From: an uncultured delta proteobacterium
GTDB lineage: Bacteria > Desulfobacterota > Binatia > UBA9968
Direction of reading: 5' to 3'
NCBI GenBank assembly: GCA_963760795.1
Contig: CAVXEP010000015.1
Coordinates: 32,001-96,000, forward strand
Length of the DNA: 64,000 nucleotides
Every line of letters begins with the position of its first letter. Position 1 is the stretch's first letter. A program made the translations under genes and the position numbers. The notes under the pieces were generated by a model. It was given only the letters and a program-made list of their open reading frames with translations, ran no database searches and had not been told where the DNA came from. This document shows, in pieces, positions 9,954-60,065 of this stretch.

Positions 9954-10114
9954 AGCGTCAGACCCTCCAGCAATCTTCTCACCTACGCGCCACTGCTGGA
10001 CCCCGGCGACAGCAGCGATCAAAGCACCTATGCATCGGCTGTCGGTTCCCCGGCTGTGGTAAAAAAATGTCGGCAACCGAAACTTTTTCGAACACGAAAT
10101 AGCAGTGAAATGAC

Positions 10115-20132: not shown

Positions 20133-21764
20133 TCACTCCGCTTTTTGCAGCACCGCTTCGCGCGGCAATTCGTACTTGGCAATGACCGGCTGATTGGCAC
20201 CGAACCGGCGGGCAAGGATAAGAATTTCCTTGTCGAAAAACACCGCCGCCCAATCCGGGTCGAGCATGCGCTGAATGACAAAATTTTCCGCCGCAGCGGA
20301 GCGGCCACTGGGGTTGATGACGATGCTGTTGAATTTATGGGCGGCCAGATGGCGGCGCCACTTTTCCTCGTTCACTAAGAGGGGAAAATAATCCTCAGTG
20401 AAAAACGTCGCCGGATAGGCTTCAGGGCGGTTGTCGACATACACACGCTCGCGCGGATAAAGGCCATAAGTCAAATAGCTGCCGACGTCGAAGGTGTTGA
20501 AGATCGGCCCCTGTAATCGCTCGCTCCGGAGAAACTCCAGCGCCGCCAGATTGCCCTCTTTGAGGCCGATGCCAAAGGCGCCGCGCCCGCCGGCAAAAAA
20601 AAATGCCGGATTGATCAGCAAAAGCAGAACCGCCACACCACTCACCGTAGCCACAGTGCCGAAGGACGAATTGAGCCAGCGCGAGGACTGCGCTCGCACC
20701 ATGCCGCGAAAGTTAGCCGCCGTCAGCGGCAACGCGAAGAAAGCAAAGATAACGAAGTTACGGATGGTCCACCATGCCAGCGCGGCGAAAAACAACGTCA
20801 AGACAAAGTTGCTTACCGAGAAACTAGTACGGTCTTTAATGATGACGTAAAGCCAACTTAAACAGAGCAGGCCGATGATGACTAAGAAAAAAGTTAGCGG
20901 AAGAAACTGAAAGCCTGCCTGAAGAATAGCCGGAACCGAATAGTTTTCGATCACCGGAAATCCATAGCCCTGGAAGATAAACAGCGGATAGACCGCGCCG
21001 CGCAACCCCGCGGGATTGATACAACTGGCGCCAACGGTCGCCAGCGCCACCGCGGTGAGAACTTTCCATGGCTGCCTTTGGGAACTTGCTTGGGGCGATC
21101 TTTGGGCGGCAAGATCGATGAGCGACTGCAAAAGAAAGACACCGACGAGAAACATGCCGATGAAAAAATAAATATGCAGGTTGACCCAAACGATCTGCAA
21201 CAGCGGTAGAATCACCAGCCAACGCGCGCCACGGTGGCCTTGCCGGTAATCCCACAGCAGATGCAGGAACAGACCGCTCATGAGATAGCTGAACATTTCC
21301 GGTCTAATTTCGGAGCGGGTGATCAGAATCGGCATGACGATGACGGTGCATACAGCTCCGAGAGCGAAGCTGCCATAGCGCACGGCCAGGCGGAAGAAAA
21401 TCCATAGGGTGGTCACGCTAACAGCGAGAAAAAACAGCGATAGCCCGGCAAAGCCCAGCATACGCTCGACCAGATAGTAGATCGCACCGCTGCCCCAAGA
21501 ATGATTGACGAACGGATGATCCGGCGTCGTGTAGGCGAAAAGATTGGTGTCGGCTATGAGACCGCTGTGAAAAAACAGCTCGCCGTTCTTCAGGTAGCGG
21601 CCGAGGTCGCTGGTGGTGAGATCGACCGGGTGAGCGAGAAAGCCGGTGTAGACAGCGAGCAAAGCTACGGTCAGACAACCTTGAATGAGCGCGCCTATTG
21701 GACGCGGCTCAACCGCGGCTGCCGCTGGAGCGGCTTGCCGCCGCGCGGAACGTTTCTTGACCAT
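20133..21764 (-). CDS. Polytopic membrane protein, probable GT-C fold
   Basis: Basic N-tail MVKKRSARR; first-loop SDLGRYLKNG, NHSWG, RPEMFS, WVNLH; C-terminal GSYL...VYVDNRPEAY domain. Confidence 0.7.
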   Translation of the reverse strand: MVKKRSARRQAAPAAAAVEPRPIGALIQGCLTVALLAVYTGFLAHPVDLTTSDLGRYLKNGELFFHSGLIADTNLFAYTTPDHPFVNHSWGSGAIYYLVERMLGFAGLSLFFLAVSVTTLWIFFRLAVRYGSFALGAVCTVIVMPILITRSEIRPEMFSYLMSGLFLHLLWDYRQGHRGARWLVILPLLQIVWVNLHIYFFIGMFLVGVFLLQSLIDLAAQRSPQASSQRQPWKVLTAVALATVGASCINPAGLRGAVYPLFIFQGYGFPVIENYSVPAILQAGFQFLPLTFFLVIIGLLCLSWLYVIIKDRTSFSVSNFVLTLFFAALAWWTIRNFVIFAFFALPLTAANFRGMVRAQSSRWLNSSFGTVATVSGVAVLLLLINPAFFFAGGRGAFGIGLKEGNLAALEFLRSERLQGPIFNTFDVGSYLTYGLYPRERVYVDNRPEAYPATFFTEDYFPLLVNEEKWRRHLAAHKFNSIVINPSGRSAAAENFVIQRMLDPDWAAVFFDKEILILARRFGANQPVIAKYELPREAVLQKAE

Positions 21765-21904
21765 GAATCGATTACGCTGCGGACAGGACGGATTTTCTGT
21801 CAGATAGGCCGCCTGGCGCTGCCGTTGCCGGGCGACAGCGGCTAGATACCGGCCGCGGTCGCCGCGGGTCGTCTTCGGGAACGACACGAACGATGAGCTC
21901 CAGA

Positions 21905-36906: not shown

Positions 36907-37983
36907 TTGGTTGCATCCATCGATCAACTAATTGCCGAGAAAGTCGGCTTGCTTTTCGGCCGCAACACCGCCGTAACCGGCGTCACCGCCTTACCCGGCG
37001 ACGCCTCGACGCGGCGCTATTATCGCGTCCACCTAAACGGATCCGGCACGCCGCCGTCGCTGATGTCGATGCAATTGCCCGCCGGCAGCGGACTGCCGAT
37101 CTCCAGCGAAGAGCTGGCGGTCTTCCCAGACGCTCCCAAGGAACTGCCGTTTTTAAACGTACACCGTTTCCTCGATCGCGTCGGCGTCAGAGTGCCAATT
37201 ATCTACGGCCATTGGGAAGCCGAGGGCCTGCTGCTACTCGAAGATCTGGGCAATGTCGCTTTGTGGGACCGGGTGCAAGGTTTATCCGAAGCCGAAGTCG
37301 TCGCGTGGTACAAAAAGGCCATCGACGAGCTTCTACGATTACAAATTGCCGGCACCGAACACCGTGACGACTCCTGCATCGCTTTTCAGCAACGTTTCGA
37401 CGAGAAACTCTACGTCTGGGAATTCGAGCATTTTATCGAATGGGGTTTGAAAAAACGGCCTGGCGCAAAGATCTCAACCACTACGCTCGCGACGCTGCGC
37501 GAAACCTTTGCCGCCATCGCGCAGACGCTCGACCGCCAACCGCCCTGTCTCAATCACCGTGATTACCATAGCTGGAATCTGATGATCCACAACGAGGCGG
37601 TATGCGTCATCGACTTTCAAGACGCCCTGCTCGCGCCGGCGCAATACGATCTCGCCTCGCTGTTAAACGATCGCATCACTGACGCCGTCATCCAACCGCA
37701 TATTGAACCGCAGCTGGTCGAGTATTATCGCGAAAGAGCCATTGAGCTATCGGGTCGCGCCATCTCGCGCCAGGAATTTTTGGATATCTACCGGCTGTCG
37801 GCGATCCAACGCGACTTAAAAGTCGTCGGCCGCTTCTACTATCTCGATCTGGTCAAAGGCAAACCGGGCTATATGAAATTCGTCCCGCCCACCGTGCGCC
37901 GGCTCCAGCGCAATCTCGCCCATGTGGCGCAGACTGAGATAATCCTGCCGCTGTTGCGCGAACATTTTGAGGCGATGCTGTGA
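36907..37983 (+). CDS. amgK: Anomeric MurNAc/GlcNAc kinase (APH-like phosphotransferase)
   Basis: GDASTRRYYR, LLEDLG, HRDYHSWNLM, IDFQDA; coupled to murU. Confidence 0.85.
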   Translation: MVASIDQLIAEKVGLLFGRNTAVTGVTALPGDASTRRYYRVHLNGSGTPPSLMSMQLPAGSGLPISSEELAVFPDAPKELPFLNVHRFLDRVGVRVPIIYGHWEAEGLLLLEDLGNVALWDRVQGLSEAEVVAWYKKAIDELLRLQIAGTEHRDDSCIAFQQRFDEKLYVWEFEHFIEWGLKKRPGAKISTTTLATLRETFAAIAQTLDRQPPCLNHRDYHSWNLMIHNEAVCVIDFQDALLAPAQYDLASLLNDRITDAVIQPHIEPQLVEYYRERAIELSGRAISRQEFLDIYRLSAIQRDLKVVGRFYYLDLVKGKPGYMKFVPPTVRRLQRNLAHVAQTEIILPLLREHFEAML

Positions 37984-38720
37984 AAGCGATGGTGCTGGCC
38001 GCCGGCCAAGGCACACGCCTGCGACCGATCACTGACGGCATGCCCAAAGCGCTGGTGCCGGTGGCCGGCCGGCCGATGATCGAGTTTGTCGTGCTGCTGC
38101 TGCGCCGTTACGGTGTCCGCGATATCGTCATTAATCTGCATCATTTCGGTGCGCAGATCGAAAAACAGCTGGGCGATGGCCAACGCTTCGACGTAAACAT
38201 CTGCTATTCAAACGAGCCCGAGCTCTTAGACACCGGCGGCGGACTGTTGAAAACCAAGGCGTTTTTACAGGATGGCACGTTCATCGTCATCAACACCGAC
38301 GCCCTGATCGACGTTGACCTAGCAGCGGTGCTGAACGACCATCGAAAGAATAATGCGGCAGCCACGCTGGTGCTGCGCCCCGATGCCGACGCCGACCGCT
38401 ATGGCTCCATCGATATCGGCGCCGACGGCCGCATCTGCCGCTTTCTCCAGCACCGATCTCCGGAACCGCCGGTTGGCGCAGTGAGAAAATTGATGTTCAC
38501 CGGCGTGCAAATTCTCGAACCGCGGATCTTCGACTACATGGATGGCGGCTTAAAAAAATTCAGCACCACCAGGGAGACCTATCCGCGCATGTTGGGCGCC
38601 GGGGAGATGCTCTACGGCTATTGTTTCGACGGCTTCTGGCAAGATCTCGGCACCCAAGAACGGATCGCGGAAGCCGAACGGCAGCTCCGCGGCGGTCAGG
38701 CACGGCTGCATTATCTGTGA
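37980..38720 (+). CDS. murU: MurNAc-1-phosphate uridylyltransferase (NTP transferase)
   Basis: MKAMVLAAGQGTRLRPIT..PKAL, LDTGGGL, WQDLGT; follows amgK. Confidence 0.8.
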   Translation: MKAMVLAAGQGTRLRPITDGMPKALVPVAGRPMIEFVVLLLRRYGVRDIVINLHHFGAQIEKQLGDGQRFDVNICYSNEPELLDTGGGLLKTKAFLQDGTFIVINTDALIDVDLAAVLNDHRKNNAAATLVLRPDADADRYGSIDIGADGRICRFLQHRSPEPPVGAVRKLMFTGVQILEPRIFDYMDGGLKKFSTTRETYPRMLGAGEMLYGYCFDGFWQDLGTQERIAEAERQLRGGQARLHYL

Positions 38721-42287: not shown

Positions 42288-43031
42288 TCACAACCGATAC
42301 TTTCCACTTAACAGATTACGCCGCACGGTGAAGGTATCGCCCAGGACATGGAAATAGTCTGACAATTTTACATGGCTGCGGTCGTCGTTGAGCCAACGCG
42401 CCGAAATGACGCCGATTTTGTAGCCCAGCCGTTGCGCCAGCGCCAGCACTTCGATATCGAATCCCCAGCCGTCGATGGTCGTCTGCGCGAAGATCCGCTC
42501 CGCCGCTTCGGCCCGAAAGGCCTTAAAGCCGCACTGGGTATCCCAGATTCCCGGCACCACGGCGATCTGCACAATCCGATTGCCGAGCCGGCCAATGGCG
42601 CGCTTGTACCAGGCCTGGGAAATCACTTGCAGCGCCTCGGGTACGTCCTTAGCATTGCGCGACGCGATGACAACATCGTAGCCCTGGTCGAACAGCGGCT
42701 TCATTTTGTCAAAGTGAGCAATATCCGTAGAGTTGTCCGCATCGCAGAATAACCGGACCTCGCCTTTGGCAGCGAGCATGCCTTCTTTGACGGTGTAGCC
42801 TTTACCGCGATTGTCTTTGCGATCAAGGATCTTTAGTTGAGGCACATCGCGTGCCACGCTGCGCACGATATCGAGCGTTGCATCAGTTGGGCCATCGAGA
42901 ACAACTATGATCTCGGAACTGAATGGACGCTGCAACAAATATTCCTGCATACGTTGAAGGGTGTTCGGTAATCTCGCCGCCTCATTGTACGCGGGAACGA
43001 CTATCGACAAATAAGCTCCGGGTTGTGTCAA
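42288..43031 (-). CDS. Dolichyl/polyprenyl-phosphate glycosyltransferase (Alg5/DPG-synthase-like GT2)
   Basis: SIVVPAYNEAARL, NRGKG, CDADNST, DTQCGFKAF, GWGFDIEVL. Confidence 0.9.
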   Translation of the reverse strand: MTQPGAYLSIVVPAYNEAARLPNTLQRMQEYLLQRPFSSEIIVVLDGPTDATLDIVRSVARDVPQLKILDRKDNRGKGYTVKEGMLAAKGEVRLFCDADNSTDIAHFDKMKPLFDQGYDVVIASRNAKDVPEALQVISQAWYKRAIGRLGNRIVQIAVVPGIWDTQCGFKAFRAEAAERIFAQTTIDGWGFDIEVLALAQRLGYKIGVISARWLNDDRSHVKLSDYFHVLGDTFTVRRNLLSGKYRL

Positions 43032-43188
43032 TTATGCATCCTGACTGACTCGGCCTTGGCCAAACACCGAAACCTTAATGACTTAACCTTTCGTCTCCTC
43101 GACCCGCCAGAACGGCGGTCGGTCTTGGCAGTGAACCGCTTGGCGGATCATCGTCACAAACTGTCTATGCCGCAGTACAGTAACGTGC

Positions 43189-45213
43189 TTATCTGGCGGT
43201 CGGACTGGAGCGCAAAATGCGCAACGATTCGGCTAAATGTTTGGCGCCCTCTTCTTTGTTTCCAAGTTCCAACTGACCGCGACCAAGGCTCTCGTGAGCT
43301 TCGGCATCATGAGGCAAGAGCCTCGTCGCTTCGCGAAAGTAATTTACCGCATCGTTAAGTTTCCCTTGCGCCGCTAAAACCCGCCCCATTTGCAAGAGAA
43401 TTCGCCCGTCATGTGGATCTTTTTTTGCGGCAATAGCCAAGACCTGCGCCGCCTCGTCAAGGCGGCCTTCGACAGCCAAGATCATTCCCAGTTTGACCCG
43501 TGCTAGGTTGCGTTCGGGCGCTAATTCTATGACTTTTCGTAAGTGTTCAACAGCTTCTCGGGTCTGCGCTTGGTTGACTAAAGCGGTAGCCAGATTTTCT
43601 CGAGCTTCGATGCTGTTTGGATTGAATTGAACAAACACCCGGTAGTGTTCGAGCGCTTCGGCCATCTTTCCTTGTTTATACAGTAACGCGCCCGCACGTT
43701 CGTGGGCATCCCAATGTTCCGGGTTGAGCTCGAGCGCGCGGCGGTATGACGAAACTGCGTCGCCGTAATTTCCTTGTGACTCGGACAGCATCGCGAGATT
43801 GTAATAAGCTGAGCTGGTAGGATTCATCGCAGCAGCATTTCTCCATAGAGTCTCAGCGTTTTGCCACAGCGGAATTTGCCGCCAAGTGAGCACCCCTAAA
43901 GTGGTTAACCCGGCTACAATGATGGATGCACAGGAAACCAACACCGGGGTTCGCATTCCTCGCACCGCAACAACATAGAGACCGCGTTCAGCACAGGCGC
44001 CGATCAACAGCGTCCAGGGCAGCGCGGCAAGATAGGTGAACCGATCGGCGAAGACCTGCTCGACCGGAAATCCGTCCCGGAAAACCGGCAGCAATAGCAA
44101 TATATAACAGAGCCACAACGGGACTAATGCAGGCCACTTGTGACGCAGGACAACAACGAGTGCGCCGAGAACCATGCTCGCCGCGATAAATAACGCCATA
44201 GACGATGCCGTTAACTCGTAAGCCGGCGTCAAACCGATCGGCAATATTGCGTTCCACAAATAAAGCGCCGGTGCGGCAAGCTGATCGAGCGCCCAATGGA
44301 GTACATTTCCTCGGTGGGTGGTCAGCTGAGACGGATCCTCATAACGACCGGCAATGACCGCCACGACCGCATACGCACCCGACAGGAGTATATAGGGCGA
44401 CTGATCTCTTAACGACCGTCCTACGCTACCCGGCATATCGTTTTTCGGACTGCCATCCGCCCTTGCGGCAAAGTGGTGCATGATCGATAAGATCGCAGGC
44501 AAAAAAAATCCACTCGGTCCGGCTAAAAGACTAAGCAAAAATGTCGCCAGCGAGGCAAATCTCCAGGCCGCGCTCATTACACCACCTGCCGCGCCGGCGA
44601 TTGCCTTGAGATAAATTAACAGACTCAAGAGAAAAAACATTGAAGCGATGAGTTCGCCTCGTGTAGACGCCCATGCCACAGATTCGACCCGGAGCGGATG
44701 GAGCGCGAAGCTAAGAGCAGCAACCGCAGCGGGCAAACCAAACCATTTCACGCCTGGGTATGCATCGCCCCTTTGCCAGTGAACAAACAGCGCCACAGCG
44801 ATGTGATAGAAGATCACTGCGTTGACGATATGGACAGACAAATTTATTAAGTGATAGCCAAACGGGTCGGTCCACCAAAACACATGGTTGATACCGAGAC
44901 TCAACCAGGCGACTGGCTGGAACTGACCGAAGTGAAAGCCCGTGAACATCCATTGAAGCTGGACCCAGCCGAGCCCACGATAGCCCAGGTTTTCGACAAG
45001 CAGCCGCGTGTCGGAATCAACAAAACCATTGTTGAGTACCGGTAAAAACACCAAAAAGGTGACCCCAATAATGATCGACGGAAAAACACTCGGCCCCGAT
45101 AGAATTCGGCAACCGCTGAGGAAAGTCTGCAGCTGTGCCGCAGACGATGGATCAGTCACCGGAGCCGTTCGAGAAACCGCCGGTATGCGGCGCCGAGTTT
45201 GCTTCGCCTTCAT
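43189..45213 (-). CDS. TMTC-like GT-C + TPR membrane protein
   Basis: LNNGFVDSD, YHLINLSVH, FALHPLRVESVAWAS.R, ADRFTYL, W.NAETLW, then several TPRs. Confidence 0.88.
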   Translation of the reverse strand: MKAKQTRRRIPAVSRTAPVTDPSSAAQLQTFLSGCRILSGPSVFPSIIIGVTFLVFLPVLNNGFVDSDTRLLVENLGYRGLGWVQLQWMFTGFHFGQFQPVAWLSLGINHVFWWTDPFGYHLINLSVHIVNAVIFYHIAVALFVHWQRGDAYPGVKWFGLPAAVAALSFALHPLRVESVAWASTRGELIASMFFLLSLLIYLKAIAGAAGGVMSAAWRFASLATFLLSLLAGPSGFFLPAILSIMHHFAARADGSPKNDMPGSVGRSLRDQSPYILLSGAYAVVAVIAGRYEDPSQLTTHRGNVLHWALDQLAAPALYLWNAILPIGLTPAYELTASSMALFIAASMVLGALVVVLRHKWPALVPLWLCYILLLLPVFRDGFPVEQVFADRFTYLAALPWTLLIGACAERGLYVVAVRGMRTPVLVSCASIIVAGLTTLGVLTWRQIPLWQNAETLWRNAAAMNPTSSAYYNLAMLSESQGNYGDAVSSYRRALELNPEHWDAHERAGALLYKQGKMAEALEHYRVFVQFNPNSIEARENLATALVNQAQTREAVEHLRKVIELAPERNLARVKLGMILAVEGRLDEAAQVLAIAAKKDPHDGRILLQMGRVLAAQGKLNDAVNYFREATRLLPHDAEAHESLGRGQLELGNKEEGAKHLAESLRILRSSPTAR

Positions 45214-45268
45214 CTAATTTGTCGAACTGTGATCGAACGATCGAGCGGACGCTTGCCCGCGCCGGTGG

Positions 45269-46780
45269 TTATTTTTTTTTGCCGGACTTGCGCGACGCCG
45301 CCGCCACCGCGAGTTTATTATTCTGCCGGTCTCTCTGGCGCGAGCCGCGCGCATTTCCAGAGACCACGGCTCCCTTCCTTTGGGAAAACACCTGAAAGAT
45401 CGTTTCTCCCAGTATCCCGGCGACTAGTGCCAACCAAAATAGCCTTTGGTGAAAATCGCCGTAATCAGCCATGACTCGCTGCTTGAGTGTCCACACGTTC
45501 GGCGCCATAACGCCTTGCACTCCGTAATTTGTCGCCGCCACCGCGAATACTACGCTATAGAATAGAGTGCAAAAGACCAGCCCGCGGGCGACCTTTCCTG
45601 GCCAACCCGCGACATGAAAGAATGCCGGCAGCCCCAACGCGAGAATTGCATACAAAGGCAGAAAAAAACGGCCCATGCCCCAACCCACTGACCCATGATG
45701 CTCCATAGTAACAATAAACAAAAAATGGACTGCCGCTAAAAGTATCAACATATGCCGCACGCGGGGTTTGAGGGGTGCGCCGAGCATGAGGCCGATGGCC
45801 CCTAAAAAAAACACCGGAAACGTCCATAGTAAGCCGTACTCCGACTGCCATAGGTAAAATCCAATTTTCTCCCAGGCATTAGACAGGTTAAGGGGCGATG
45901 GAAAATTCTGGTCGAACCCGCCGGCCGAATAACCGGTAGCGAAAGGCGATCCAAAAACCGTCGCGTTTGAGATCGGCAGAATCGATAGTGTCGGCAAGAA
46001 CGCCAACGTGAAACAAACCATGGAGCGGCGCGACGGGCGGCTGACAATTAGGTACACGCAAATCAGCAAAACGATCGGCAGCACCAAATAAGTCGTCACC
46101 ACGGCGAATGCGAGGAGAAAACCAACAGCCAGCGCACAGAGGGATGCGCCAAGGCCATTGTCGGTTGATCGGCACTGCCAGATAACTAGGCCAAGGAGAA
46201 TCAGCGCGACCGCCAGACTGTCATGATAGAGCACTCCAGACGCAGCCCACCACGGACTCGAGAAGGCAACCGTCATGCTGGCGAAAGCCGCAGCCAGCCA
46301 TGGAATTTCCCAGTACCGTCCCAGGACAAAAAGCGCCATGACTCCGAGCGCGCCCAGTGGCGCGGTTAAGCTCCAGACCAAGATTTTCCACACCAGTGGC
46401 TCGTGTGTCTCGAATCGCCATCCCAAATGCACGCATACGGCATACCATGGCGCCGCCAGAAGAAATTGTCCGGGGGCATGATTCACATAGTACCTGCCGC
46501 CGTAGGGGAAAATATTGAAAAGTTCACGGAAGGCAGCAGTCTTCGTGTCGAAGTTTTCGAACACCCGTTCATTGTTGGCTTCCTTGATGTTGCCATGAAC
46601 AAAGTGCAACCGACCGCGCTCCACCAGGGCTTCGACCACGGCACCCTGCAGCGCAAACGGACGCTGCTCGACCGTTGCAAACAATACCCAACAAACCAGG
46701 AATATGCCGACCGCGGTCCACCGGTCACGCTGTTGCCACTGGACTAAAGAGCCCGCAGGAGAATTCATCGTATCGGCCAA
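45269..46780 (-). CDS. Polytopic membrane protein, probable GT-C fold
   Basis: ALVERG.L, YYVNHAPG, FGSPFATGY, GLLWTFP, GWGMGRFFLP; about 11 TM helices. Confidence 0.65.
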   Translation of the reverse strand: MADTMNSPAGSLVQWQQRDRWTAVGIFLVCWVLFATVEQRPFALQGAVVEALVERGRLHFVHGNIKEANNERVFENFDTKTAAFRELFNIFPYGGRYYVNHAPGQFLLAAPWYAVCVHLGWRFETHEPLVWKILVWSLTAPLGALGVMALFVLGRYWEIPWLAAAFASMTVAFSSPWWAASGVLYHDSLAVALILLGLVIWQCRSTDNGLGASLCALAVGFLLAFAVVTTYLVLPIVLLICVYLIVSRPSRRSMVCFTLAFLPTLSILPISNATVFGSPFATGYSAGGFDQNFPSPLNLSNAWEKIGFYLWQSEYGLLWTFPVFFLGAIGLMLGAPLKPRVRHMLILLAAVHFLFIVTMEHHGSVGWGMGRFFLPLYAILALGLPAFFHVAGWPGKVARGLVFCTLFYSVVFAVAATNYGVQGVMAPNVWTLKQRVMADYGDFHQRLFWLALVAGILGETIFQVFSQRKGAVVSGNARGSRQRDRQNNKLAVAAASRKSGKKK

Positions 46781-47292
46781 GACGCTAATCGAATTACTGA
46801 TACTGCCAAACCTTTTCGCCGGTTTGTCGCATGTGATTTTTCACGAGCCAAGTGAAAATCAGCAGCGCTGCGCATGAAAGTTCGCGTTTCTTCGTCGTCA
46901 ATCTGCTACAGCCTGCCAAGCTTCGTCTTGTCTCGAGAGATGCTCAAACAGAACATACTATTAAATCGCGTTCAAACCCTATTCTCACGTGTCGGCGGTT
47001 ATCCGCGCCGACTTCATGCTTGTACATGGCCGCGCTTGCGGGTATTTTTGCACAGGGCAAGCCAACTCGTCGGTCGATTTACCAATACGCTGCATGAGTC
47101 TTATTGACAATTTTTTGCCGCTTCGGAATGATCTGTGCAGCGTTCATGGGCTGCTCACTGTCCCCAAGATGTTATCCCTGAGGCCTCTCGATTTAACTCT
47201 TCATGGGAGGCAAGTTATCGCTCAAGCCGCTTGGTTGTGATCAAAACATCAACACCGAGGGCGTTAGCGCATAACTGTAAAGCCAATCACCG

Positions 47293-49378
47293 ATGCTAGA
47301 AACTTCTCGGTATCCCGGCTTACGACCGAACTTGACCGGCATCATGCTAGCCTGGTGCATTTTGGTGTTTATCGAGTTTACTTTTTTCGTATTGATTTCG
47401 CGTAGCGCGTTTCATAGTCGCGAATTGCCTCTTGGCGCTCTCCTTCTTCTTTTCAGCGAGTCGGTCACGCTACTTACAATCGTGACTTTTGTCATCGGCG
47501 CCGCGCTGGCAACCGGGGGCATCGCTATTCAAAGATATTTCTCCCCTGGGCCTCGGACAATTTGGATCATCCGCTTCCTGGGCACATCGCTAGTTTGGCT
47601 AGGCCTCATAGTCTATGGCGCAAGCTGGAGTCTATTCTGGCAAACCGGCAGCTTTATCGGCAAACAAGTGTTCATCTTTTTAGCGCCCCATCCGCTGCAG
47701 GTTTTCCATTGGGTCGACTTCGATATAGCCTGTGCCATAGTCGCGGTCGCCGGGGTCGGCGCGTTTGTCCTCACCGTGGCGATTCCGCAGCTGGGTCGCG
47801 GCGCATTCGTCAACGGTTCAGCTCCAGTTATTGCGAAGCGGCAACCGAGCGATAGTTGTTTTTGCCATCGGCGCGCTGCTCGGCTTCGTGTACAGCCAAG
47901 GCGGCGATCGCAAATCCACAAAGGCTGGGATCGTCTATACTAGAATCCGCGAAAATATCTCCGGCCCGTGGTCTTTTGCGTTCGCCGAATTTGTCAAACC
48001 GACAAGTGATTCGGTAACGGGACTGCCCATCGACAAGAGTTTTCGGATATCGCAACGGCCGCTCATGCCGGTCGATCGATACACCGCTATGGCTCGGCAA
48101 AAACCCCACCACCAATGGAATGTCGTGCTGCTGACCGTCGAATCGCTTCGCGCCGATCAATTGCGCGCTTATGGCGGTGGTCGAGAGGTCATGCCGGCTC
48201 TAGACCAGCTCGCCAGCGAGGCGCGGGTCTTCCTGAACAGCTACACCCAGTCCAGCCACACCAATTACGCTACGATCGTGCCGCTGTCGTCGCATTATCC
48301 GTTACGCTCGGCAACCATGTATAGCTACCCGAAAAATCCGACTTATCCACGAGTCTTGATCTACGACTTGCTTAAGGCACTCGGTTATCGCACCGCGATC
48401 TTCTCTTCATCGAATGAAAATTGGAGCGGCATGAACAATTATTTAGAAACTGGAAACCTCGATCGATTTATTCATGCCGCCAATTCAAAGAAGCCCACCT
48501 ATCTCATGCCAGGAGACGCCGGATTCGCCACGTGGGCTCGAGACTCCAATCATGCCGGGAGCCTCGATGACCGCACGACCGTCGATGAAGCCCTTGAATG
48601 GCTTGATGGCCTTGGTAACGAACCCTTCTTTGTGGCACTGAATTTTCAGAACAGCCATCTCCCTTACCCCATCCCGCCGGACTTTCCGCGACGATTCGGA
48701 CCAGCGAAACTCGACTTCACGATTCGCTTCGCCCACTTCCCGAAGGACAAGGTAGAGATCGTCAAAGATGTGTATGCGGATAGCCTGGCGTACGTTGATT
48801 CTCAGATTCAGCGTTTTATTCAACATCTCAAACTCAAGAACAAGTGGGACAACACCCTGGTGATTATCACCGGCGACCACGGCCAGGCTTTTTATGAACA
48901 TGGGTTTGCCTCTCATGCGAGTGCAATCTTCGACGAAGTCATGCGCGTTCCCTTGATCGTCCGTGCGCCCGGACTCAAAGCTGGGCGTGAGAATCGCCTC
49001 GCCCAGCATGTCGATATCGCGCCGTCGATCACTGGACTGCTTGGCCTGCCCAATCATCCAAGCTTCCAAGGAATCGATCTCTTCGCCACGCCGGAGAACC
49101 CCAGCCGAGCCGCGTACATGGTTGCCCAAACACCGGATGCCTATCAATACGGTATCGTGCGCGCAGGCTTCAAACTCATCTTTGATGAAAGACTGCGAGT
49201 ACATCGGCTCTTCAACCTTGAAACGGATCCTGGCGAGAAACAGGATGTAGCCACCACCGAGCCAGTGATTGTGAAGGAACTGGCAACCCGTCTAAACACC
49301 TGGCGTAAACTCCAAATCGATTATTATTCGGACCCCACGGTCCAAAAGCGCGAGTACCCACCGATACTCAACGATTAG
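47293..49378 (+). CDS. Membrane-anchored alkaline-phosphatase-superfamily (sulfatase/LtaS-like) protein; frameshift at ~47788
   Basis: About 5 TM helices (ORF 47293..47943) join ORF 47765..49378 as IP[c]SWV. Motifs VLLTVESLRAD, SHLPY, TGDHG, VPLIV, HVDIAP, LFNLETDPGE. Confidence 0.85.
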
Positions 49379-49411
49379 CTGGTCGATCCCATCCCAAAGC
49401 GCTGGTGCACC

Positions 49412-51376
49412 TTGGCAAAAAGCCGGCATCAAAGAAAAAAACCAACCAACGACCGACCGGCAGCGACGCGCTCACGTTTGCATCGCGGCTCGACGGCCGA
49501 ACACAATTACCATTTCCCCAGATGGGCCGGTGTAGTGTTTATACTCCATGCCTTTGCCCTCGCGCTGAGCTTTGAAACAATCTACGCGCTATTTGGCAAC
49601 CAGCCGCTGATCGACCAGGACTGGGGGCTGCACTTCCATCATCTGAAATCACTGGAAGCTTTCTGGCGCGATAGCGCTGGTTTGTCGGGCTACAACCCCT
49701 ACTTCATGGCCGGCTATCCATCGAACACGATCCAAGATTTGAGCGTCAAATTTTTCGAATTCGCTTCGCTGGGACTCGCGACCATCGGATTAGCGCCGGC
49801 CCAAGGGTTCAAGATCACCGCATTCCTGGCCATGGCCAGCGTACCAGGGCTGAGCTATTTTGCCGGGCGTAATTTTTTCTATAACCACGAGTCAAGGGAC
49901 ATGATCGCCCTCGGCTCTGCCTCGTTGGGCGCCCTCTATTGGTGGAACTCCTTGCCGCGGGAAATGTTTTTCTACGGCATGATCGGCTTTCCCGTGGCAG
50001 CCTATTTCAGCGTCTGGGGAGTGTCCTTGTTCTACCGCTTGGTCATGGAGTCGCCGAAACCGGGGCTACTCCATGTTGGCTGGCTCTTGTTCGCGGCAGT
50101 GATTCTCCCATTGCATGTCCAGTCGCTGGTTATTTTCGCGCCGTCGATGATCGCGCTATTGATCGTCCAGCCAAGACGAATGACAGCAATGTTATTTTTT
50201 TGGCTGGTTGCAGCGCTGGCGCTTTGCGCCCTGGTAAACTTCCCATGGCTCATAACCGCGTTCAATCACCGTCACGACGACGTTTCTTCAGCCATCGTCG
50301 CGCAGCTGCCGCTGTTTGCCAGCAGCGATCCGTTGACGTTCTTGATCGACTATCTCGGCGCCAAGGGGTATTGGACGTTTCGTCCATCGTTTGTCGAAAA
50401 AGGCTTTCGCCTCATGCTGTTGATTTTGGGCGTGCTTGGAACCATTGAGTTAATCAAGAAAGGCAACCGCCCTGTCGGCATTGCGCTCACTGCGGGGCTG
50501 TTGAGCCTGTTCGTATTAACCTACTTCGGCGCCTTCATTCCTGGTCTGGCGGCTTGGCAGCCGTTGCGTTTCAAGGTCCCGTTCGATCTTTTCCTGGTGA
50601 TTGGCGCGGCGTATTGCCTCAACCAATGGCTTACCGGTCAGAAAGCGTGGCGCTTTCATCTCGTTCCGGCAACGTTCGCGCTGGGCGGCTTGGCCTTCGC
50701 GATCAATCTTGTTCAGACAGAGTCGATGGGCAAGCTGCAACTGCGTACCCGCATGGTTCCGGAAATCACGGCGATTGTCGACTGGGTTGGCCGTGAAACG
50801 CCGCGCGACGCCCGAGTGCTGTTCGAAGAATCCGGCGATGAAACCGGCTTTGTCTACGACGGCATCTATCTGTCATCTTTTCTGCCGCACTTGAGCGACC
50901 GGCAGTTGATCGGCGGCCCGATCAATATCTACAATGATCGCCACCATTTCGCCGAGTTTCATTCGGGCCAGCTTTTTAAGCGCGACATTGGCACCATTTC
51001 TGACGATGACCTGCGTAACTATTTGCGACTGTACAACATCGGCGCGGTAGTCGCTTTTCATCCGGCTTCGATTAAAAAGCTGCTGTCGATACCTGGTCTC
51101 GTGACTGTCGATCGGCGCATCGGACCGATCCATCTAATGAAAGTAAATCAGCCGCTGAGCTGGTTTGTGGAGGGTGACGGAAAAGTGCAAGCCGGCGCCA
51201 ATCGTTTAGAGCTTCACGACCTGAAAGGCAGTGAAATCGTGCTTAAATATCATTGGGTCGCCGGCCTTAACAGCGAGCCTGCCGCAAAGATCGAAGCGGT
51301 CAAACTAGCCGACGATCCGATTCCGTTCATTAAACTCATCGACCCACCGTCGTCATTGGTCTTGCGCGTCCAATAG
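49412..51376 (+). CDS. Polytopic membrane protein, probable GT-C fold, with a periplasmic C-terminal domain
   Basis: First-loop DQDWGLH and GYNPYFMAGYP; about 12 TM helices; ARVLFE..YNIGAVV tail. Confidence 0.68.
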   Translation: MAKSRHQRKKPTNDRPAATRSRLHRGSTAEHNYHFPRWAGVVFILHAFALALSFETIYALFGNQPLIDQDWGLHFHHLKSLEAFWRDSAGLSGYNPYFMAGYPSNTIQDLSVKFFEFASLGLATIGLAPAQGFKITAFLAMASVPGLSYFAGRNFFYNHESRDMIALGSASLGALYWWNSLPREMFFYGMIGFPVAAYFSVWGVSLFYRLVMESPKPGLLHVGWLLFAAVILPLHVQSLVIFAPSMIALLIVQPRRMTAMLFFWLVAALALCALVNFPWLITAFNHRHDDVSSAIVAQLPLFASSDPLTFLIDYLGAKGYWTFRPSFVEKGFRLMLLILGVLGTIELIKKGNRPVGIALTAGLLSLFVLTYFGAFIPGLAAWQPLRFKVPFDLFLVIGAAYCLNQWLTGQKAWRFHLVPATFALGGLAFAINLVQTESMGKLQLRTRMVPEITAIVDWVGRETPRDARVLFEESGDETGFVYDGIYLSSFLPHLSDRQLIGGPINIYNDRHHFAEFHSGQLFKRDIGTISDDDLRNYLRLYNIGAVVAFHPASIKKLLSIPGLVTVDRRIGPIHLMKVNQPLSWFVEGDGKVQAGANRLELHDLKGSEIVLKYHWVAGLNSEPAAKIEAVKLADDPIPFIKLIDPPSSLVLRVQ

Positions 51377-51434
51377 CTCCCGGCATGTCGTCAAGCGCTT
51401 ACCACTTGGAACCGCGCCATGTTACATCGAGATA

Positions 51435-53438
51435 CTATCTAGCCGGCGAATTCGAGCCGCTTTGCTGCATCAAGCGAACTGCTTCCTGATGGTGCTGCAT
51501 CGCCTGCGCTTTTTTCCCTTGAAGCGCTAGCAGCTGCGCCAAGCTCTGATGGGCCGGGGCAAAATCGGCGCGCCGTTGCAGCGCTTGGGTAAACGCCGCC
51601 TCCGCCTCGGCGTAACGATTCTGCGCCGCGTAGACGCTGCCCAGATAGTAAATCGGCTCGGCGGCCTCCGGACTAAGCGCTGCCGCCTGTTGCAGCGGGG
51701 CAACCGCCTCATCCATCCGACCGTTTTTTGCCAAGGCGACGCCAAGATTGAGCTGCGCCCGGCTCACCGACGGATCGAGCGTGATCGCCTTTTGGAAATG
51801 TTCCATGCCGGTAGCGAGATCGCCGCCCTCGGCGAGAAGTTGGCCATAGTTGCTATGAGCTTCGGCATAGTTGGGCAATAACCGGAGTGAGTCTTCAAAA
51901 TGGCGCCGTGCCAGATCGGATCGGCCCTTCTGCATGTACAGATTGCCAAGGTTATAGTGGGCCACTCCATAGTCCGGTTGAATCTCCAGGGCACGCAAGG
52001 CGGCGTCGATCGCGTCATCGACGTTACCCTGCTTCGCATAAGCATTGGCCAAGTTATTATAGCCGGCGGCGCCTGGCCCGGATGGACCGCCAAGGGGCCA
52101 GTTTACCAACCCGGCTGTGATTGCCAGAACTATCGACGCCGTGATTGCTTGGGACCAATTCTTTTGGCGCAATAGCCGGACAAACTCGACAATCGCTACC
52201 CCGGCAAACAATGCTAAAAACGGCACCAGCGGATAACGATATCGGCCAAAGACATAAAACAGCGCCACACTGCCGGCGAGCGCCAAGATCATCGCATGGA
52301 GGAGCCACAGCCGGCGCCACTCGCGCCAGGTAAAAAACATCCCGGCAGCGGCAAGCGGCGCAAGTACACCGAAGTGAGCGAGCCACGCCAAAAGTGCCAG
52401 CGGCGCCGAGAACTGGCGGTAGATGTAAAAATCATCGGAGTCCTCGATCTCGCGCGCATGCCAAACCAACAACCACTTCCGCCCCAAGAGACTCAGCCAT
52501 CGACCCGGTTGCGCTTCGATAAAAGCGATCGACTGGCGCAACCAGTAACTGGAAACCTCGCCGGGCGTCAGTGAGTGGCCGGTCGCTCTTTCAGCCAGGC
52601 GCTTAGCGTCCGGACCTTCCAGCTGAACCTCTTTGATGAGTTGCCTAACCGATCCGTAGGTTCCGTCGGCAACCGGATTATTGCCGATAAAGAAGTTCGG
52701 CCCCAGCTGCGAGGTGGTGAGCTTGAACTCGCCGCCAACGATCAAGTTGCGGATTCCGACGGGGACCAGGACGAATAACAAACCAGCCAGGAAGCAGCCC
52801 AGCCAGCGCGCGCGGACCGCCGGCGGTTCGCGAGGAAGCTCAACAAATATCCATATCGCGACAAGCGGAGCCAAGATCAGGGCATTCTCGCGCGACAGGC
52901 CCAGAAGTCCCAGCAGCGAACCCACGCCGAGCCATTTCATCAGGTAGTGGGTTCGACCAACATCCACCAGGAGGTAGAGCATCAGACAGAGCAACGTCAA
53001 GTCAAGAATACTTTTTTCAATCAACGCGTCGAAAAATATCGCCGGCGCATAAATAGCCAGCACCAAGCCAGCGGCGATGCCCGCCGAACGAGAAAACAAT
53101 TTATCACCGACAAGAAATAGCAAGGCGCAAGACAACGCCCCGAGGAGGATCTGCAAGAAACGAATCAGCCAGAGGTTGTGGCCAAAAACAAATTGCCAGA
53201 CGGCGAGAAAATAGGGATATAACGGCGCTTGGTAAAATACCCCGCTGCCAAGCCAGTCACCCGCGGCGATTCGCTGCGCCCACTCGTCGTAAGTCCGGCC
53301 GTCGCCGGCGAGGTTGTCGAACAGCGGCATCGCCTCGATCTGCCAAAGGTGAACAAATCGCAGTAGCAGCGCGATCGCAAAGATCGTACTGAACCACAGG
53401 GCGGTTGTCTTGGGCGCGAAGCTATCAGCCGCGCGCAC
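51435..53438 (-). CDS. GT39/ArnT-like GT-C + TPR protein
   Basis: GDGRTYDEWAQRIAAGDW, YQAPLYPYFL, LSREN, NFFIGNNP.ADG, RYRYPLVP, then about 5 TPRs. Confidence 0.85.
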   Translation of the reverse strand: MRAADSFAPKTTALWFSTIFAIALLLRFVHLWQIEAMPLFDNLAGDGRTYDEWAQRIAAGDWLGSGVFYQAPLYPYFLAVWQFVFGHNLWLIRFLQILLGALSCALLFLVGDKLFSRSAGIAAGLVLAIYAPAIFFDALIEKSILDLTLLCLMLYLLVDVGRTHYLMKWLGVGSLLGLLGLSRENALILAPLVAIWIFVELPREPPAVRARWLGCFLAGLLFVLVPVGIRNLIVGGEFKLTTSQLGPNFFIGNNPVADGTYGSVRQLIKEVQLEGPDAKRLAERATGHSLTPGEVSSYWLRQSIAFIEAQPGRWLSLLGRKWLLVWHAREIEDSDDFYIYRQFSAPLALLAWLAHFGVLAPLAAAGMFFTWREWRRLWLLHAMILALAGSVALFYVFGRYRYPLVPFLALFAGVAIVEFVRLLRQKNWSQAITASIVLAITAGLVNWPLGGPSGPGAAGYNNLANAYAKQGNVDDAIDAALRALEIQPDYGVAHYNLGNLYMQKGRSDLARRHFEDSLRLLPNYAEAHSNYGQLLAEGGDLATGMEHFQKAITLDPSVSRAQLNLGVALAKNGRMDEAVAPLQQAAALSPEAAEPIYYLGSVYAAQNRYAEAEAAFTQALQRRADFAPAHQSLAQLLALQGKKAQAMQHHQEAVRLMQQSGSNSPAR

Positions 53439-53620
53439 TCGGTTCGCGACGGCGTTGGGCCCGCGTCCTGTCAGCCAATCGATCTGATCGCTGACCCATG
53501 GCCCAATCGTTTTTTGCCGGCGGACTGCGTGACTCGCCTAGTTGACCTGATCATGGACATCGTGCAATCGGCTTGCTTTTTAGCGGATTATTGCGTTTCA
53601 TTGAGAATTCGAGTTCAACT

Positions 53621-55066
53621 ATGGCATATAACAGCCTGCAAGATTTCCTTCAAGTTTTGGAGCGTGAGGGCGAGTTGAAGCGGATATCCCATCCCGGTCA
53701 AGGCCGAGTTGGAAATCACCGAGATCGCCGATCGCGTGATGAAATCCGCCGGGCCGGCGTTGCTCTTTGAAAACGTCGTCGGCAAAAACATCCCGGTGTT
53801 GATCAACGCCTTCGGTTCGACCAAGAGGATGGCGTTGGCGTTGGGTGTGAAGGACATCGAGGAGATCGCCGCCGAGATCGCCAAGCTAATCCAAACCCGC
53901 CCGCCAAAGTCGTTCAAAGACAAACTGCAGCTACTCGGCGAACTGGTGAAACTGGCGGGTATCCCGCCGAAGATGGTCAAAGAAGCGGCTTGCCAGGAAG
54001 TCGTCAATCGCGATCCTGATCTGAACCTGCTGCCGGTGCTGACCTGCTGGCCCGGCGACGCCGGGCCGTTTATCACTCTGCCGATGGTTTTTTCCAAAGA
54101 TGCCGTGAAAGGCACGAGAAATGTCGGGCTCTATCGCATGCAGATCTTCGATCAAGCGCACCACCGGCATGCATTGGCATCTGCACAAAGTCGGCGCCAG
54201 ACATTTTCAGCAACAGAAAGAAAACAAGGGTAAGTTGGAGCTGGCGGTCTGCCTCGGCGGCGATCCGGCGATGATCTACGCCGCCACCGCGCCGCTGCCG
54301 CCGCAGATCGATGAGATCCTCTTCACTGGCTTCTTGCGCAAAAAAGGCGTCGAGTTAATTAAATGCCTAACCGTCGACATCGAAGTGCCGGCCAACTCGG
54401 ACATCGTCATCGAAGGCTACGTCGATCCAGCGGAGCCGCTGCGGCGTGAAGGCCCCTTCGGCGATCACACGGGTTTCTATTCGCTGGCCGATGATTATCC
54501 GGTGTTTCACGTGACCTGCATCACCCAGCGGAAAAATCCGATTTATCCAACCACCATCGTCGGCCGTCCGCCGATGGAAGACGCCTTTCTTGGCAAAGCC
54601 ACTGAACGACTGTTTCTGCCGCTCTTGCGCGTCACCCTGCCCGAGATCGTCGACATGAACCTGCCCGTGCATGGGGTGTTTCATAACCTGGCGATCATCT
54701 CGATCAAGAAAGAATATCCGGCCCACGGGCGCAAAGTCATGCACGCTCTATGGGGCTTGGGGCAGATGATGTTCACCAAGACCCTGATCGTCGTCGATCA
54801 CGACGTCAATGTGCATGATCTCGCCGAAGTCACCTGGGTAGTCGGTAATAATATCGAACCCAAACGCGACACTATCTTCGTCCGACGGCCCGGTCGACGT
54901 CCTCGATCATGCCGCGCCGGTGCTCGGCTATGGCTCTAAGCTCGGTCTCGATGCCACGCGCAAGTGGCGCAGCGAGGGTTTCGAGCGGGAATGGCCCGAC
55001 GCCATCGTCATGGACGAGAAAACCAAAAAACACATCGACGCAATCTGGGAAAAACTGGGACTATGA
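53621..55066 (+). CDS. mqnL: UbiD-family menaquinone-biosynthesis decarboxylase; three +1 frameshifts (~53693, ~54153, ~54882)
   Basis: LEITEI, GPALLFEN, NVGLYRMQ, GMHWH, EGPFGDHTGFY, GSKLGLDAT. Removing one C at each site gives one ORF ending in an ATGA overlap with the next gene. Confidence 0.88.
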
Positions 55067-58559: not shown

Positions 58560-60065
58560 TTAGAACGTGTAGCGCCAGTTCAAGAACCACTCCATCCAGT
58601 CGCCGCCCTTGCCGTTGCGGCAGTTGGCAGGAGCATTCGGACACACGTCAAGATTATGCGCCGGTTGGTTACGCGCATTTTGCAGGTTGGATGCTTCGGT
58701 CCACAGGATGTTGATACCCACGCTCATGCGCGGCGCGATGAAGTACCACAGATCCCACTCGTTGAGCCTGATCGCGCTGCGGTGAAAGTCGCCGCTGTTG
58801 AGCGTCGCCGGGCAGGTTATGCCCGTGCTGCCATTACAACCCACCGACAAGTCGGTGCGCTCAAAGTGGTAGCCGAACAAGATCGAGCCAGGCGTCGTCG
58901 ACGACCCGGTCAACCAGCCCTTGGGACTCCACAGATACATATCGTGACCGATCAGGAATACATTGGCTTTCTTTTGGCCTTGGCCATTGGCTGCGTTGCC
59001 GATGCCGGTGCCCCGATCCTCGGATCGTTGCCAGGCGTACATCGACCGTAAGGTATACGGGCCGACGTTCCACACCAAACCGGGACCCTGTTGGATCGTC
59101 AGGCCGTCACCCACCGAGTTGGCGCCGGTGCTAAACAGCGTCTGCCGGCCGCCACGGGCGTTGGTCTGGATGCGGTACTGGTTGCAACCGTTCGCCACTG
59201 CGCGGTTGTCCGAGTTACAGAACCACGCGCCATACTCGAGGGTTAAACCACTGATCCATTTGTTCTTGACCTGCGAGAACGGCGAAATGTTGAGGTAGGA
59301 GTGGAAGTCTTTGCGGTCGGTGTTGAGCTGCGTGCCGTCGCCGCCTTCGCCGTAGGAGTTCATGCCGACTTGGAAGCGGCCGATGCGGCCGGGGATGCCG
59401 ATGCTCGACAACGATCGGTCATCCCAGGTAAGGGTGATGCCGGAGCTGGCGCTGCCGGTGTTGAAGCCCAAAGCCTGGGTCAACATGTCGTACTCGGCCT
59501 GCGCGCCCGTGGCGCCCGAGCCCTGGCGCGCCAAGCTGACCGGACCCGAGTTGGTCGTGTCCATGCCGAACTGCACACTGGGCAGCCAGGGATTGAGCTG
59601 GTCGGCATTGAAATAGATTACGCCGCGCTGCAACGGCGTGTTGCCGCCGAAGCCGTCCAAGTCCAGGCGCCAGTCGATCTGCCATAGGCAGTTGTTGACG
59701 CACAGATAAAACTCCGGCCGGAAGCGCCGCCCTTCCAACTCGCCCATGCTGCGGCCGACCTGGTCGCGCCCTTGCTCGAAATTGTAGCGCATATGCGCTT
59801 CGAACGAATGACGGAACGACCACGACTTGTCGGCCGCTTCGATCATCATGCCGTTGCCGGGACGATACGAAAACGAGGGCATCGCCGCCGCTGCCGCGGT
59901 CGCCTCTTTCTTCAACTCGATCTGCGATTCTTTTAGCTGCTGGAGTTCCTGCTCGAGCGCGCTGATCTTGTCACTCACACTCTGCGCTTGAACCGTTCCC
60001 GCCGCTAGAAGGAACGCAGCTAGCAAACTCGCTAACCACATACTCTTCTTCTTCATAATACCCAT
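58560..60065 (-). CDS. Outer-membrane porin-like beta-barrel (OprO/P-like architecture)
   Basis: Signal peptide AQA, N-terminal coiled coil, amphipathic strands and a C-terminal beta-signal NWRYTF; AGGAGG RBS. Confidence 0.75.
   Translation of the reverse strand: MGIMKKKSMWLASLLAAFLLAAGTVQAQSVSDKISALEQELQQLKESQIELKKEATAAAAAMPSFSYRPGNGMMIEAADKSWSFRHSFEAHMRYNFEQGRDQVGRSMGELEGRRFRPEFYLCVNNCLWQIDWRLDLDGFGGNTPLQRGVIYFNADQLNPWLPSVQFGMDTTNSGPVSLARQGSGATGAQAEYDMLTQALGFNTGSASSGITLTWDDRSLSSIGIPGRIGRFQVGMNSYGEGGDGTQLNTDRKDFHSYLNISPFSQVKNKWISGLTLEYGAWFCNSDNRAVANGCNQYRIQTNARGGRQTLFSTGANSVGDGLTIQQGPGLVWNVGPYTLRSMYAWQRSEDRGTGIGNAANGQGQKKANVFLIGHDMYLWSPKGWLTGSSTTPGSILFGYHFERTDLSVGCNGSTGITCPATLNSGDFHRSAIRLNEWDLWYFIAPRMSVGINILWTEASNLQNARNQPAHNLDVCPNAPANCRNGKGGDWMEWFLNWRYTF

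Follow-up and report, generated by a model that had tools for sequence, protein, structure and literature searches.

The six neighbouring genes described here, lettered A to F, lie at 42288-53438 of a 64-kb stretch of DNA (the window) from an uncultured soil-type bacterium of the class Binatia. They make up a genuine glycosylation locus, whose grouping is not random and whose general kind is known; new in it are the protein family to which gene E belongs and the pairing of E with gene F inside a variable island of GT-C glycosyltransferases. A previous sequence-only reading had named a lipid-phosphate-sugar synthase, four GT-C membrane proteins, two of them carrying tetratricopeptide repeats (TPR), and a membrane-anchored LtaS-like enzyme. 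The list of open reading frames (ORFs) and the domain scans place all six genes in this interval, largely under those names (Table 1).

Table 1. Coordinates of the six genes and of the divergent spacer within the window (aa, amino acids; TM, transmembrane)
Feature	Position	Strand	Description
A	42288-43031	-	247-aa GT2, polyprenol-phosphate-sugar synthase-like; last in the leftward C-B-A string
B	43189-45213	-	674 aa; multi-TM domain 43834-45213, TPR domain 43189-43833
C	45269-46780	-	503-aa compact membrane protein of predicted GT-C fold; opens the C-B-A string
C/D spacer	46781-47292		512-bp divergent intergenic region
D	47293-49378	+	Predicted LtaS-type; 5-6 TM segments, then an extracytoplasmic alkaline-phosphatase/sulfatase-fold domain
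E	49412-51376	+	654-aa protein of predicted GT-C fold; C-terminal beta-rich domain, residues ~440-654
F	51435-53438	-	667-aa predicted PMT_2-type GT-C with a C-terminal TPR domain; convergent with E

Two divergent gene strings, C-B-A and D-E, make up most of the locus, and the co-directional genes in them are separated by gaps of 55, 157 and 33 nucleotides, the last lying between the end of D and E. The flanks are of housekeeping type, with a ZIP transporter, a Cu/Zn superoxide dismutase, a DUF362 protein and an AmgK/MurU-like pair on the left and ubiD, ubiA and tauE on the right. Domain scans found no Wzx, Wzy, Wzz, ABC exporter or GT4 protein in the cluster or its flanks, and the earlier judgement that this does not look like an O-antigen or capsule locus stands. 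The best promoter-like match in the C/D spacer is TTGACA-17-AATGAT at 47104-47132 on the forward strand; in the promoter and terminator scan, promoter-like sites were no more numerous than in shuffled sequence.

Conservation was followed in 45 loci, which were gathered by a scan with the E alignment, one genome per species, and mapped with tblastn and at the ORF level. Most are labelled as Binatia or as delta-proteobacterial metagenome-assembled genomes, three as Sumerlaeota and two as Planctomycetota; 32 have at least 2.2 kb downstream of E and 26 at least 7.5 kb upstream of it, and these are the informative ones. The backbone reads NAD synthase-nitrilase-AmgK-MurU-(two genes)-sodC-zip-(A)-(variable)-E-F-(variable)-ubiD-ubiA-tauE. 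A relative of F is the next ORF after E in 24 of the 32 loci and lies somewhere in the locus in 29, while the three loci that have none (L037-L039) hold the most distant relatives of E. In L023, which stands outside the 32 (its E was missed in ORF calling), a YfhO-like gene takes the place of F. Gene A is present in 12 of the 26 loci with room upstream, thus the E-F core pair does not depend on A in cis. C and D occur in just four of these 26 (L001, L002, L004 and L027), with partial evidence from the cut contigs L018 and L034, and orthologues of B were found only in the same four. Where the insert is missing, A and E adjoin each other divergently; the place of the B-C-D block, about 5 kb in size, is therefore exactly the A/E spacer, with C and B on the strand of A and upstream of it, and D before E. 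Elsewhere the variable slots hold, among other genes, those for PMT_2 proteins with TPR (673-841 aa) or without (483-749 aa) and for multi-pass proteins of unknown kind.

The locus is a variable island around a fixed E-F pair and not a fixed six-gene system. The single conserved multi-gene system that had been proposed did not survive the comparison of neighbourhoods, which leaves only E-F as conserved, A as optional and B-C-D as a lineage-specific insertion. The grouping of the genes is nevertheless more than chance, because E and F occur together in 29 of the 32 loci and the whole block recurs in four genomes. As side observations on these loci, the genes for E and F are fragmented in L027 (10001-14100), L029 and L031, so that frame breaks are found in related assemblies too. 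L033, L024 and L040 are labelled Verrucomicrobiia or Syntrophobacter, yet they show the Binatia gene order with E at 54-66% identity, and their bin labels may be wrong.

Such variability could also arise if the genes did not share a pathway. The stretch from zip to ubiD would then be a recombination hot spot that gathers independent GT-C paralogues with their own donors and targets, and the adjacency of E and F would be synteny inherited within one class. This is consistent with inserts that vary from genome to genome, with the absence of A from so many loci, with the origin of most loci in Binatia, and with a second complete GT2 and PMT_2 module elsewhere in the window (14521-18905). However, E and F are also adjacent in the two Planctomycetota records, L041 and L042, at 34-40% identity, the inserted genes are co-directional with A and E across the gaps given above, and the block is kept whole at 44-93% identity in four genomes. 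We regard independent accumulation as very unlikely, and the pairing of E and F across at least two phyla suggests a joint function. The second module is self-contained and of the polyprenol-phosphate-sugar type: it consists of an NAD-dependent epimerase/dehydratase, a GT2, a methyltransferase and a 401-aa PMT_2 protein, its GT2 is a full-length ArnC/PgfS-like protein of 330 aa (265 bits to PgfS), and its G+C content is ~0.51 vs 0.55-0.61 in the adjacent bins.

Conventional searches gave little for C and E. Neither has a Pfam or NCBIfam match even at an E-value of <=10, plain sequence searches of both against PDB chains returned nothing useful, and a profile of E found no PDB match at an E-value of <=1. 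AlphaFold2 models were built from alignments of 79 relatives of E and 58 relatives of C and compared with the PDB by Foldseek. For E, whose model has a mean predicted local distance difference test value (pLDDT) of 75.1 and a predicted template-modelling score (pTM) of 0.75, ranks 1-34 among the matches listed are all GT-C proteins (best E-value 3.4e-6), among them STT3, AftA, DPY19, PglB, AglB, ArnT, AftD, ALG9, ALG12, Emb and Pmt4; transporters appear in the list only at E-values >0.04 and with low probability. The model of C (pLDDT 87.0, pTM 0.87) matches best to ArnT (5f15; E-value 2e-6, TM-score 0.44), with AftB reaching a TM-score of 0.50, and ranks 1-46 among the matches listed are GT-C enzymes except for two GPI-transamidase subunit U chains. 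On these models the GT-C fold class of both proteins is clear, though no close functional relative emerges.

The catalytic acid of GT-C enzymes is carried right after the first membrane helix, and directly after this helix in E (residues 35-52) D70 is invariant and D68 is present in at least 90% of the 79 sequences. The C-terminal beta-rich domain of E is highly conserved as well and contains an invariant EESGDE. Loop 1 of C has no invariant Asp; E50 and E54 are kept in at least 90% of sequences, and D187 is invariant farther on. The 72 homologues of C are all unnamed or annotated as 'hypothetical', and its neighbours in the language-model Atlas include clusters with PMT or PMT_2 on a minority of members.

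A profile search of 1.84 billion representatives showed how large the E family is, with 1,521 clusters at 50% identity for E-values of <=1e-3, 1,040 at 1e-10 and 428 at 1e-30, and its members are mostly full-length proteins of ~600-660 aa. Among 40 sampled members, 36 have no Pfam match, three match PF10131 (PTPS_related membrane protein) weakly and one matches DUF6541 weakly; just one of these four scores passes its cut-off (29.4 vs 26.4). E is the founder of a large family, GT-C by its predicted fold, that no Pfam or NCBIfam model covers. The few weak matches are what the family has in common with PF10131/DUF6541, whereas E itself and 36 of the sampled members match neither, and it may be that the family branches off distantly from these uncharacterised GT-C-like families.

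The partner of E is more easily placed. F matches PMT_2 (PF13231) at residues 70-223 with 52.7-53.7 bits, vs a cut-off of 26.1, has TPR in addition, and in the alignment shows invariant D46, Y50 and W53 in loop 1. Judged from its domains, F is a PMT_2-type GT-C with TPR and the conserved partner of E. The predicted complex of E (residues 33-460) with F (residues 1-455) received a score of 0.00, which speaks neither for nor against binding.

The sequence of A is in keeping with its naming as a lipid-phosphate-sugar synthase. It matches Glycos_transf_2 (PF00535; E-value 3.9e-24), contains the DxD-type motif D97-A-D99, and its nearest solved chains are GtrB sll0501 (2.4e-11), an archaeal Dol-P-Man synthase (2.4e-8) and ArnC (4.2e-8). 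It has no hydrophobic segment, hence neither a membrane anchor nor the C-terminal membrane helices of GtrB and ArnC. The full-length NCBIfam matches, to dolichyl-P hexose transferase, AglJ, PpgS, ArnC and PgfS, are weak and all sub-threshold (at best 55.6 bits vs a cut-off of 500; ArnC 41.9 vs 529); PpgS and Dol-P hexose transferase, both short and without an anchor, are among those that align to A over its full length, though weakly. From its sequence, A belongs with the short GT2 proteins that resemble polyprenol-phosphate-sugar synthases (GtrB/DPM1/ArnC group). The AmgK-like kinase and the MurU-like uridylyltransferase at 36907-38720, which both score under their equivalog cut-offs, were considered as a donor supply and set aside, as they belong to the backbone whether or not A is present. 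They are a cell-wall-sugar recycling pair, and in most related loci the syntenic backbone includes them.

In B, ~8 hydrophobic segments precede the TPR families, which occupy residues 447-673. Its membrane domain has 872 homologues in many phyla, and 12 of the 120 listed bear the JGI name 'protein O-mannosyl-transferase'. As a lead, the Atlas puts this domain next to a cluster with PMT_2 on 30% of its members (0.98), and a chordate TMTC_DUF1736 cluster stands at rank 19 (0.92, 191 shared features). The alignment of B-family paralogues shows FVNWDD in loop 1, H..Y.P, RRD, K-A-T-x-x-T and D-R-x-x-Y. Likenesses of B itself to the TMTC motifs are an acidic motif in loop 1, though in altered form, H..(Y/F).P, and D390-R391-x-x-Y394; the last (D390-R391-F-T-Y394) corresponds to M7, which in TMTC reads E-R-x-x-Y and precedes TM10, and its R391 and Y394 do not vary among 18 sequences. 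B also has Y318-x6-P-x4-P, like the motif reported for Emb and TfpW. These features make B a candidate for the GT-C/TMTC/TfpW-like architecture with divergent catalytic motifs, and its likeness to GT-C enzymes is drawn from indirect evidence. Of the four GT-C proteins of the sequence-only reading, C and E are upheld by the structural models and F by PMT_2, and B is a candidate by this indirect route; for the TMTC likeness of B, the TPR domain and the M7 motif speak in its favour, and the missing TMTC_DUF1736 and PMT_2 matches and the loss of the M4 lysine and of one M1 Asp speak against it.

The catalytic part of D matches PF00884 (E-value 4e-46). Over the whole domain its PDB matches are LtaS chains (2w8d, 4.7e-14; 4uoo, 1.2e-11), and sulfatases match the C-terminal half of the domain only. 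A sulfatase was rejected on the strength of these full-domain matches and of the C/S-x-P-x-R formylglycine motif, which does not occur in the catalytic domain of D. The NCBIfam equivalogs are far below cut-off (LtaS 65.2 vs 970, EptA 21 vs 561, EptB likewise). D is, by its sequence, probably an LtaS-type transferase that is intact in life; of the LtaS-like membrane-anchored enzyme that had been named, the fold assignment stood, and the reservations are the distance from the LtaS equivalog and a broken reading frame in the window.

Building on the gene order, the pattern of conservation and the folds or families of A, C, D, E and F, we hypothesize that Binatia have a variable periplasmic glycosylation island with the E-F pair of GT-C enzymes as its core, and that the locus is one of its versions; we hold the chances of this to be even. 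In such an island, A would charge polyprenol phosphate, on the inner side of the membrane, with a sugar taken from a nucleotide sugar, and a flippase encoded elsewhere would move the lipid-linked sugar across. At the periplasmic face, each GT-C would pass single sugars to an acceptor, and the product would also receive from D a phospho-alcohol head group, which is probably glycerol phosphate derived from a phospholipid. Protein acceptors would be selected through the TPR domains of F and B, on the pattern of TfpW and TMTC, with C, E and D lengthening and decorating the glycan. That the GT-Cs use a polyprenol-phosphate-linked donor we infer from the neighbouring GT2, the single piece of evidence that points to it.

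Several results weigh against this hypothesis, and B is its least secure part. Its residues 1-460 have no Pfam match even at an E-value of <=10, TMTC_DUF1736 and PMT_2 included, a profile of 18 B-type N-terminal domains has no PDB match at an E-value of <=1, and the Pfam scan of 18 B-family N-terminal domains from the loci found no GT-C family. In hhalign the B family aligned to the F, C and E families with probabilities of 6.9%, 0.6% and 0.9%, and a deeper alignment of 103 sequences gave 4.5%, therefore profile comparison does not tie B to the other GT-Cs; BLASTP of the N-terminal domain of B against that of F showed no similarity either. Only one of 18 database homologues of the B domain reaches PMT_2 (26.3 bits). 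At M1, B of the window reads FVD-SD (D66, S67, D68), with a one-residue deletion, vs FVNWDD in the paralogues; at M4 it reads A-G232-P-S-G-F vs S-K-A-T-A-M-T, and the donor-phosphate lysine is lost; and H246 stands where the paralogues have a conserved Asp. The B orthologues in L001, L002 and L027, and partly that in L004, depart from the paralogues in the same way, and with these changes B may have an altered donor or be inactive. Apart from B, the TM-scores of C and E are just 0.31-0.50 (0.31-0.48 for E), A is absent from 14 of the 26 loci, and no flippase (GtrA-, SMR-, MATE- or Wzx-like ORF) is encoded within the cluster; the ORF list shows no hydrophobic small ORF in the C/D spacer, which therefore offers no flippase candidate. 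No pilin, S-layer or other candidate substrate gene adjoins the cluster, and none of the ORFs at 28.8-63.9 kb of the window has a pilin domain. On the same side stand the GT2, GT-C and phosphotransferase trio, which is the make-up of lipid A and teichoic acid modification systems, and the contexts of distant E relatives, which look like envelope-polymer loci (MurJ, YfhO-like, L,D-transpeptidase, LtaS-like with GDPD, DegT with formyltransferase, GDSL).

The last point of this kind is the reading frame of D. The gene consists in the window of two overlapping ORFs, 47293-47943 with five hydrophobic segments and 47765-49378 with the Sulfatase fold, and is a single 696-aa ORF in L002; relative to L002 the window has one extra base at ~47790-47792 that puts the halves into different frames. 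The simplest reading, and probably the right one, is an assembly indel and not a pseudogene, because ubiD of the same window (53573-54939) also lies in four frame pieces, with three frame changes, vs an intact 496-aa gene in L002. If the break were genuine, the accessory part of the locus could be decaying, with B a dead pseudo-enzyme, D a true pseudogene and only A, C, E and F active, which would fit either type of acceptor. The residues S67, G232 and H246, in place of D, K and D in the paralogues, would agree with decay, the more so as S67 and G232 fall in the ligand-binding motifs of TMTC (DD and K-E-T-x-x-T). However, B is full-length at 75-88% identity in three genomes and retains D66, D68, R391 and Y394, and D is intact in L002, where ubiD is unbroken too. 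We consider decay quite unlikely.

One known system close in build is TfpW of Pseudomonas aeruginosa. This protein of 646 aa has its N-terminus in the cytoplasm, crosses the membrane ~11 times, bears a DDX motif in loop 1 and ends in a TPR domain on the periplasmic side; it is a D-arabinofuranosyl transferase that uses a polyprenol-phosphate sugar and is required for arabinosylation of pilin, and tfpW directly follows pilA. Compared by architecture alone, B and F resemble it in a GT-C-type+TPR build, a similar size and an acidic residue in loop 1, and B also in a proline motif, which in TfpW stands before the C-terminal domain. Matching donor genes, a UbiA-type gene and an epimerase gene, lie beside B-like genes in L032. 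The differences are that no pilin gene is found near the cluster and that the donor gene here is a GT2 and not a UbiA-type synthase. The earlier idea thus has a bacterial precedent, since TfpW is already characterised as a TPR-bearing GT-C that glycosylates pilin. The pair in L032 (14292-17038) is an epimerase and a UbiA-HAD fusion resembling polyprenyl-phosphoribose synthase, located between F and the B-like TPR genes, and L033 has two ORFs that match this pair in size and position, the domain scan having covered the L032 pair only. TfpW and the pentofuranose three-component systems use a donor pathway of the type seen in L032.

TMTC1-4 are animal protein O-mannosyltransferases of the GT-C and TPR type, and the TMTC paper notes full-length homologues in uncharacterised prokaryotes. 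B and F share with TMTC1-4 a membrane GT-C-type domain followed by TPR, and the paralogues of B carry motifs that resemble M1-M4 and M7; the window's B differs in the missing domain matches and motif residues described above. The three-component glycosylation systems of Kelly et al. (2024) combine a polyprenyl-phosphoribose synthase, a MATE flippase and GT136. In common with three-component systems (GtrA/GtrB/Gtr-type), the present locus has a lipid-phosphate-sugar synthase and GT-C enzymes acting after export, but it has no flippase gene, four GT-Cs (two with TPR) instead of one, and a position outside any O-antigen cluster.

The acceptor is where the competing explanations part. Our best guess, drawn by analogy and a little short of even, is that secreted or envelope proteins are modified; we lean slightly to proteins for the TPR-bearing enzymes because the only characterised enzymes of such architecture, TMTC1-4 and TfpW, act on proteins. 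The same enzymes could instead decorate a non-protein glycoconjugate of the envelope, with the TPR domains as periplasmic scaffolds. The target would then be lipid A or the core of the lipopolysaccharide (LPS), a glycerophosphate polymer like teichoic acid or osmoregulated glucan, or a lipid-anchored glycan built stepwise by GT-Cs. A product of the lipid A or LPS kind is what the sequence-only reading had itself named as grounds for giving up its proposal. Most characterised bacterial sets of GT2, GT-C and phosphotransferase act on lipids or polymers, and models for such envelope decoration are ArnC/ArnT/EptA, the rhizobial Rgt enzymes, LtaS+CsbB+YfhO, OpgB and the stepwise GT-Cs of mycobacteria. 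ArnC/ArnT/EptA and LtaS+CsbB+YfhO share with our locus a GT2 lipid-sugar synthase, a GT-C and a membrane-anchored phosphotransferase of alkaline-phosphatase fold; they differ in that the equivalog scores here are far under cut-off, genes for ArnA, ArnB and ArnD are missing, and the bacterium here, a diderm, belongs to another phylum.

Within the locus, an envelope glycoconjugate would agree with ArnT as the best structural match of C and with an LtaS-like gene immediately upstream of E, and the differing gene content of close relatives is usual for surface-glycan loci. Polymer-type or amino-sugar-type genes also surround distant relatives of E. Beside the E relative, L037 has another LtaS-like gene and a GDPD gene, and L023 has MurJ and an L,D-transpeptidase along with its YfhO-like gene. 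In L041 (617-14753), two DegT genes, a GFO/IDH/MocA oxidoreductase, a formyltransferase-like gene and two unknown proteins of 445 and 709 aa, the latter with ~14 TM segments, precede E-F, and a GDSL esterase follows. The scanned part of L042 holds one DegT gene, a formyltransferase-like gene, the same two unknown proteins and a GDSL esterase. The setting in L041 and L042 suggests a formylated or acylated amino-sugar donor there. Against an envelope glycoconjugate stand both TPR fusions of the locus and the numerous TPR-GT-C paralogues in sister loci, whose sole characterised counterparts, TfpW and TMTC, glycosylate proteins; D scores far under the LtaS, EptA and EptB equivalog cut-offs; and no LPS-core or lipid A genes were found near the cluster. 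We regard this explanation as a serious one, though on balance we doubt it.

Returning to protein acceptors, the reading can be extended beyond Binatia. E and F could be a widespread, so far undescribed two-enzyme machine for periplasmic protein O-glycosylation in Binatia, Planctomycetota and beyond, in which F and B, as counterparts of TMTC, choose folded targets by their TPR, E acts on the same targets, and the variable neighbours write a species-specific glycan code. In this far-reaching form we think the idea unlikely. The open-access literature that was searched contained no characterised bacterial TMTC-like protein besides TfpW and no paper on the E family.

Farther from the cluster, two large proteins at 6578-10076 have DUF11, CARDB, SBBP beta-propeller and DUF7948 domains, which are typical of surface proteins. 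They are conceivable targets of glycosylation, but lie at least 32 kb off. ORFs of 248-674 aa that have no Pfam match occur at 1715-5897, 12726-13979, 20133-21887 and 58560-60065, and the last is conserved in the syntenic backbone of the related loci.

GT-C enzymes build or decorate much of the bacterial exterior, and outside a few model groups their targets are obscure. The series of loci uncovered here swaps GT-C, TPR-GT-C, LtaS-like and donor-synthesis genes around a constant pair, and this is variation from which function can be inferred by comparison. As the organism is uncultured, the locus is valuable as a guide for heterologous tests. If its TPR-bearing members act on proteins, they would be prokaryotic relatives of the animal TMTC enzymes; if they act on lipids or polymers, they would represent a new use of TPR domains in the assembly of the envelope.

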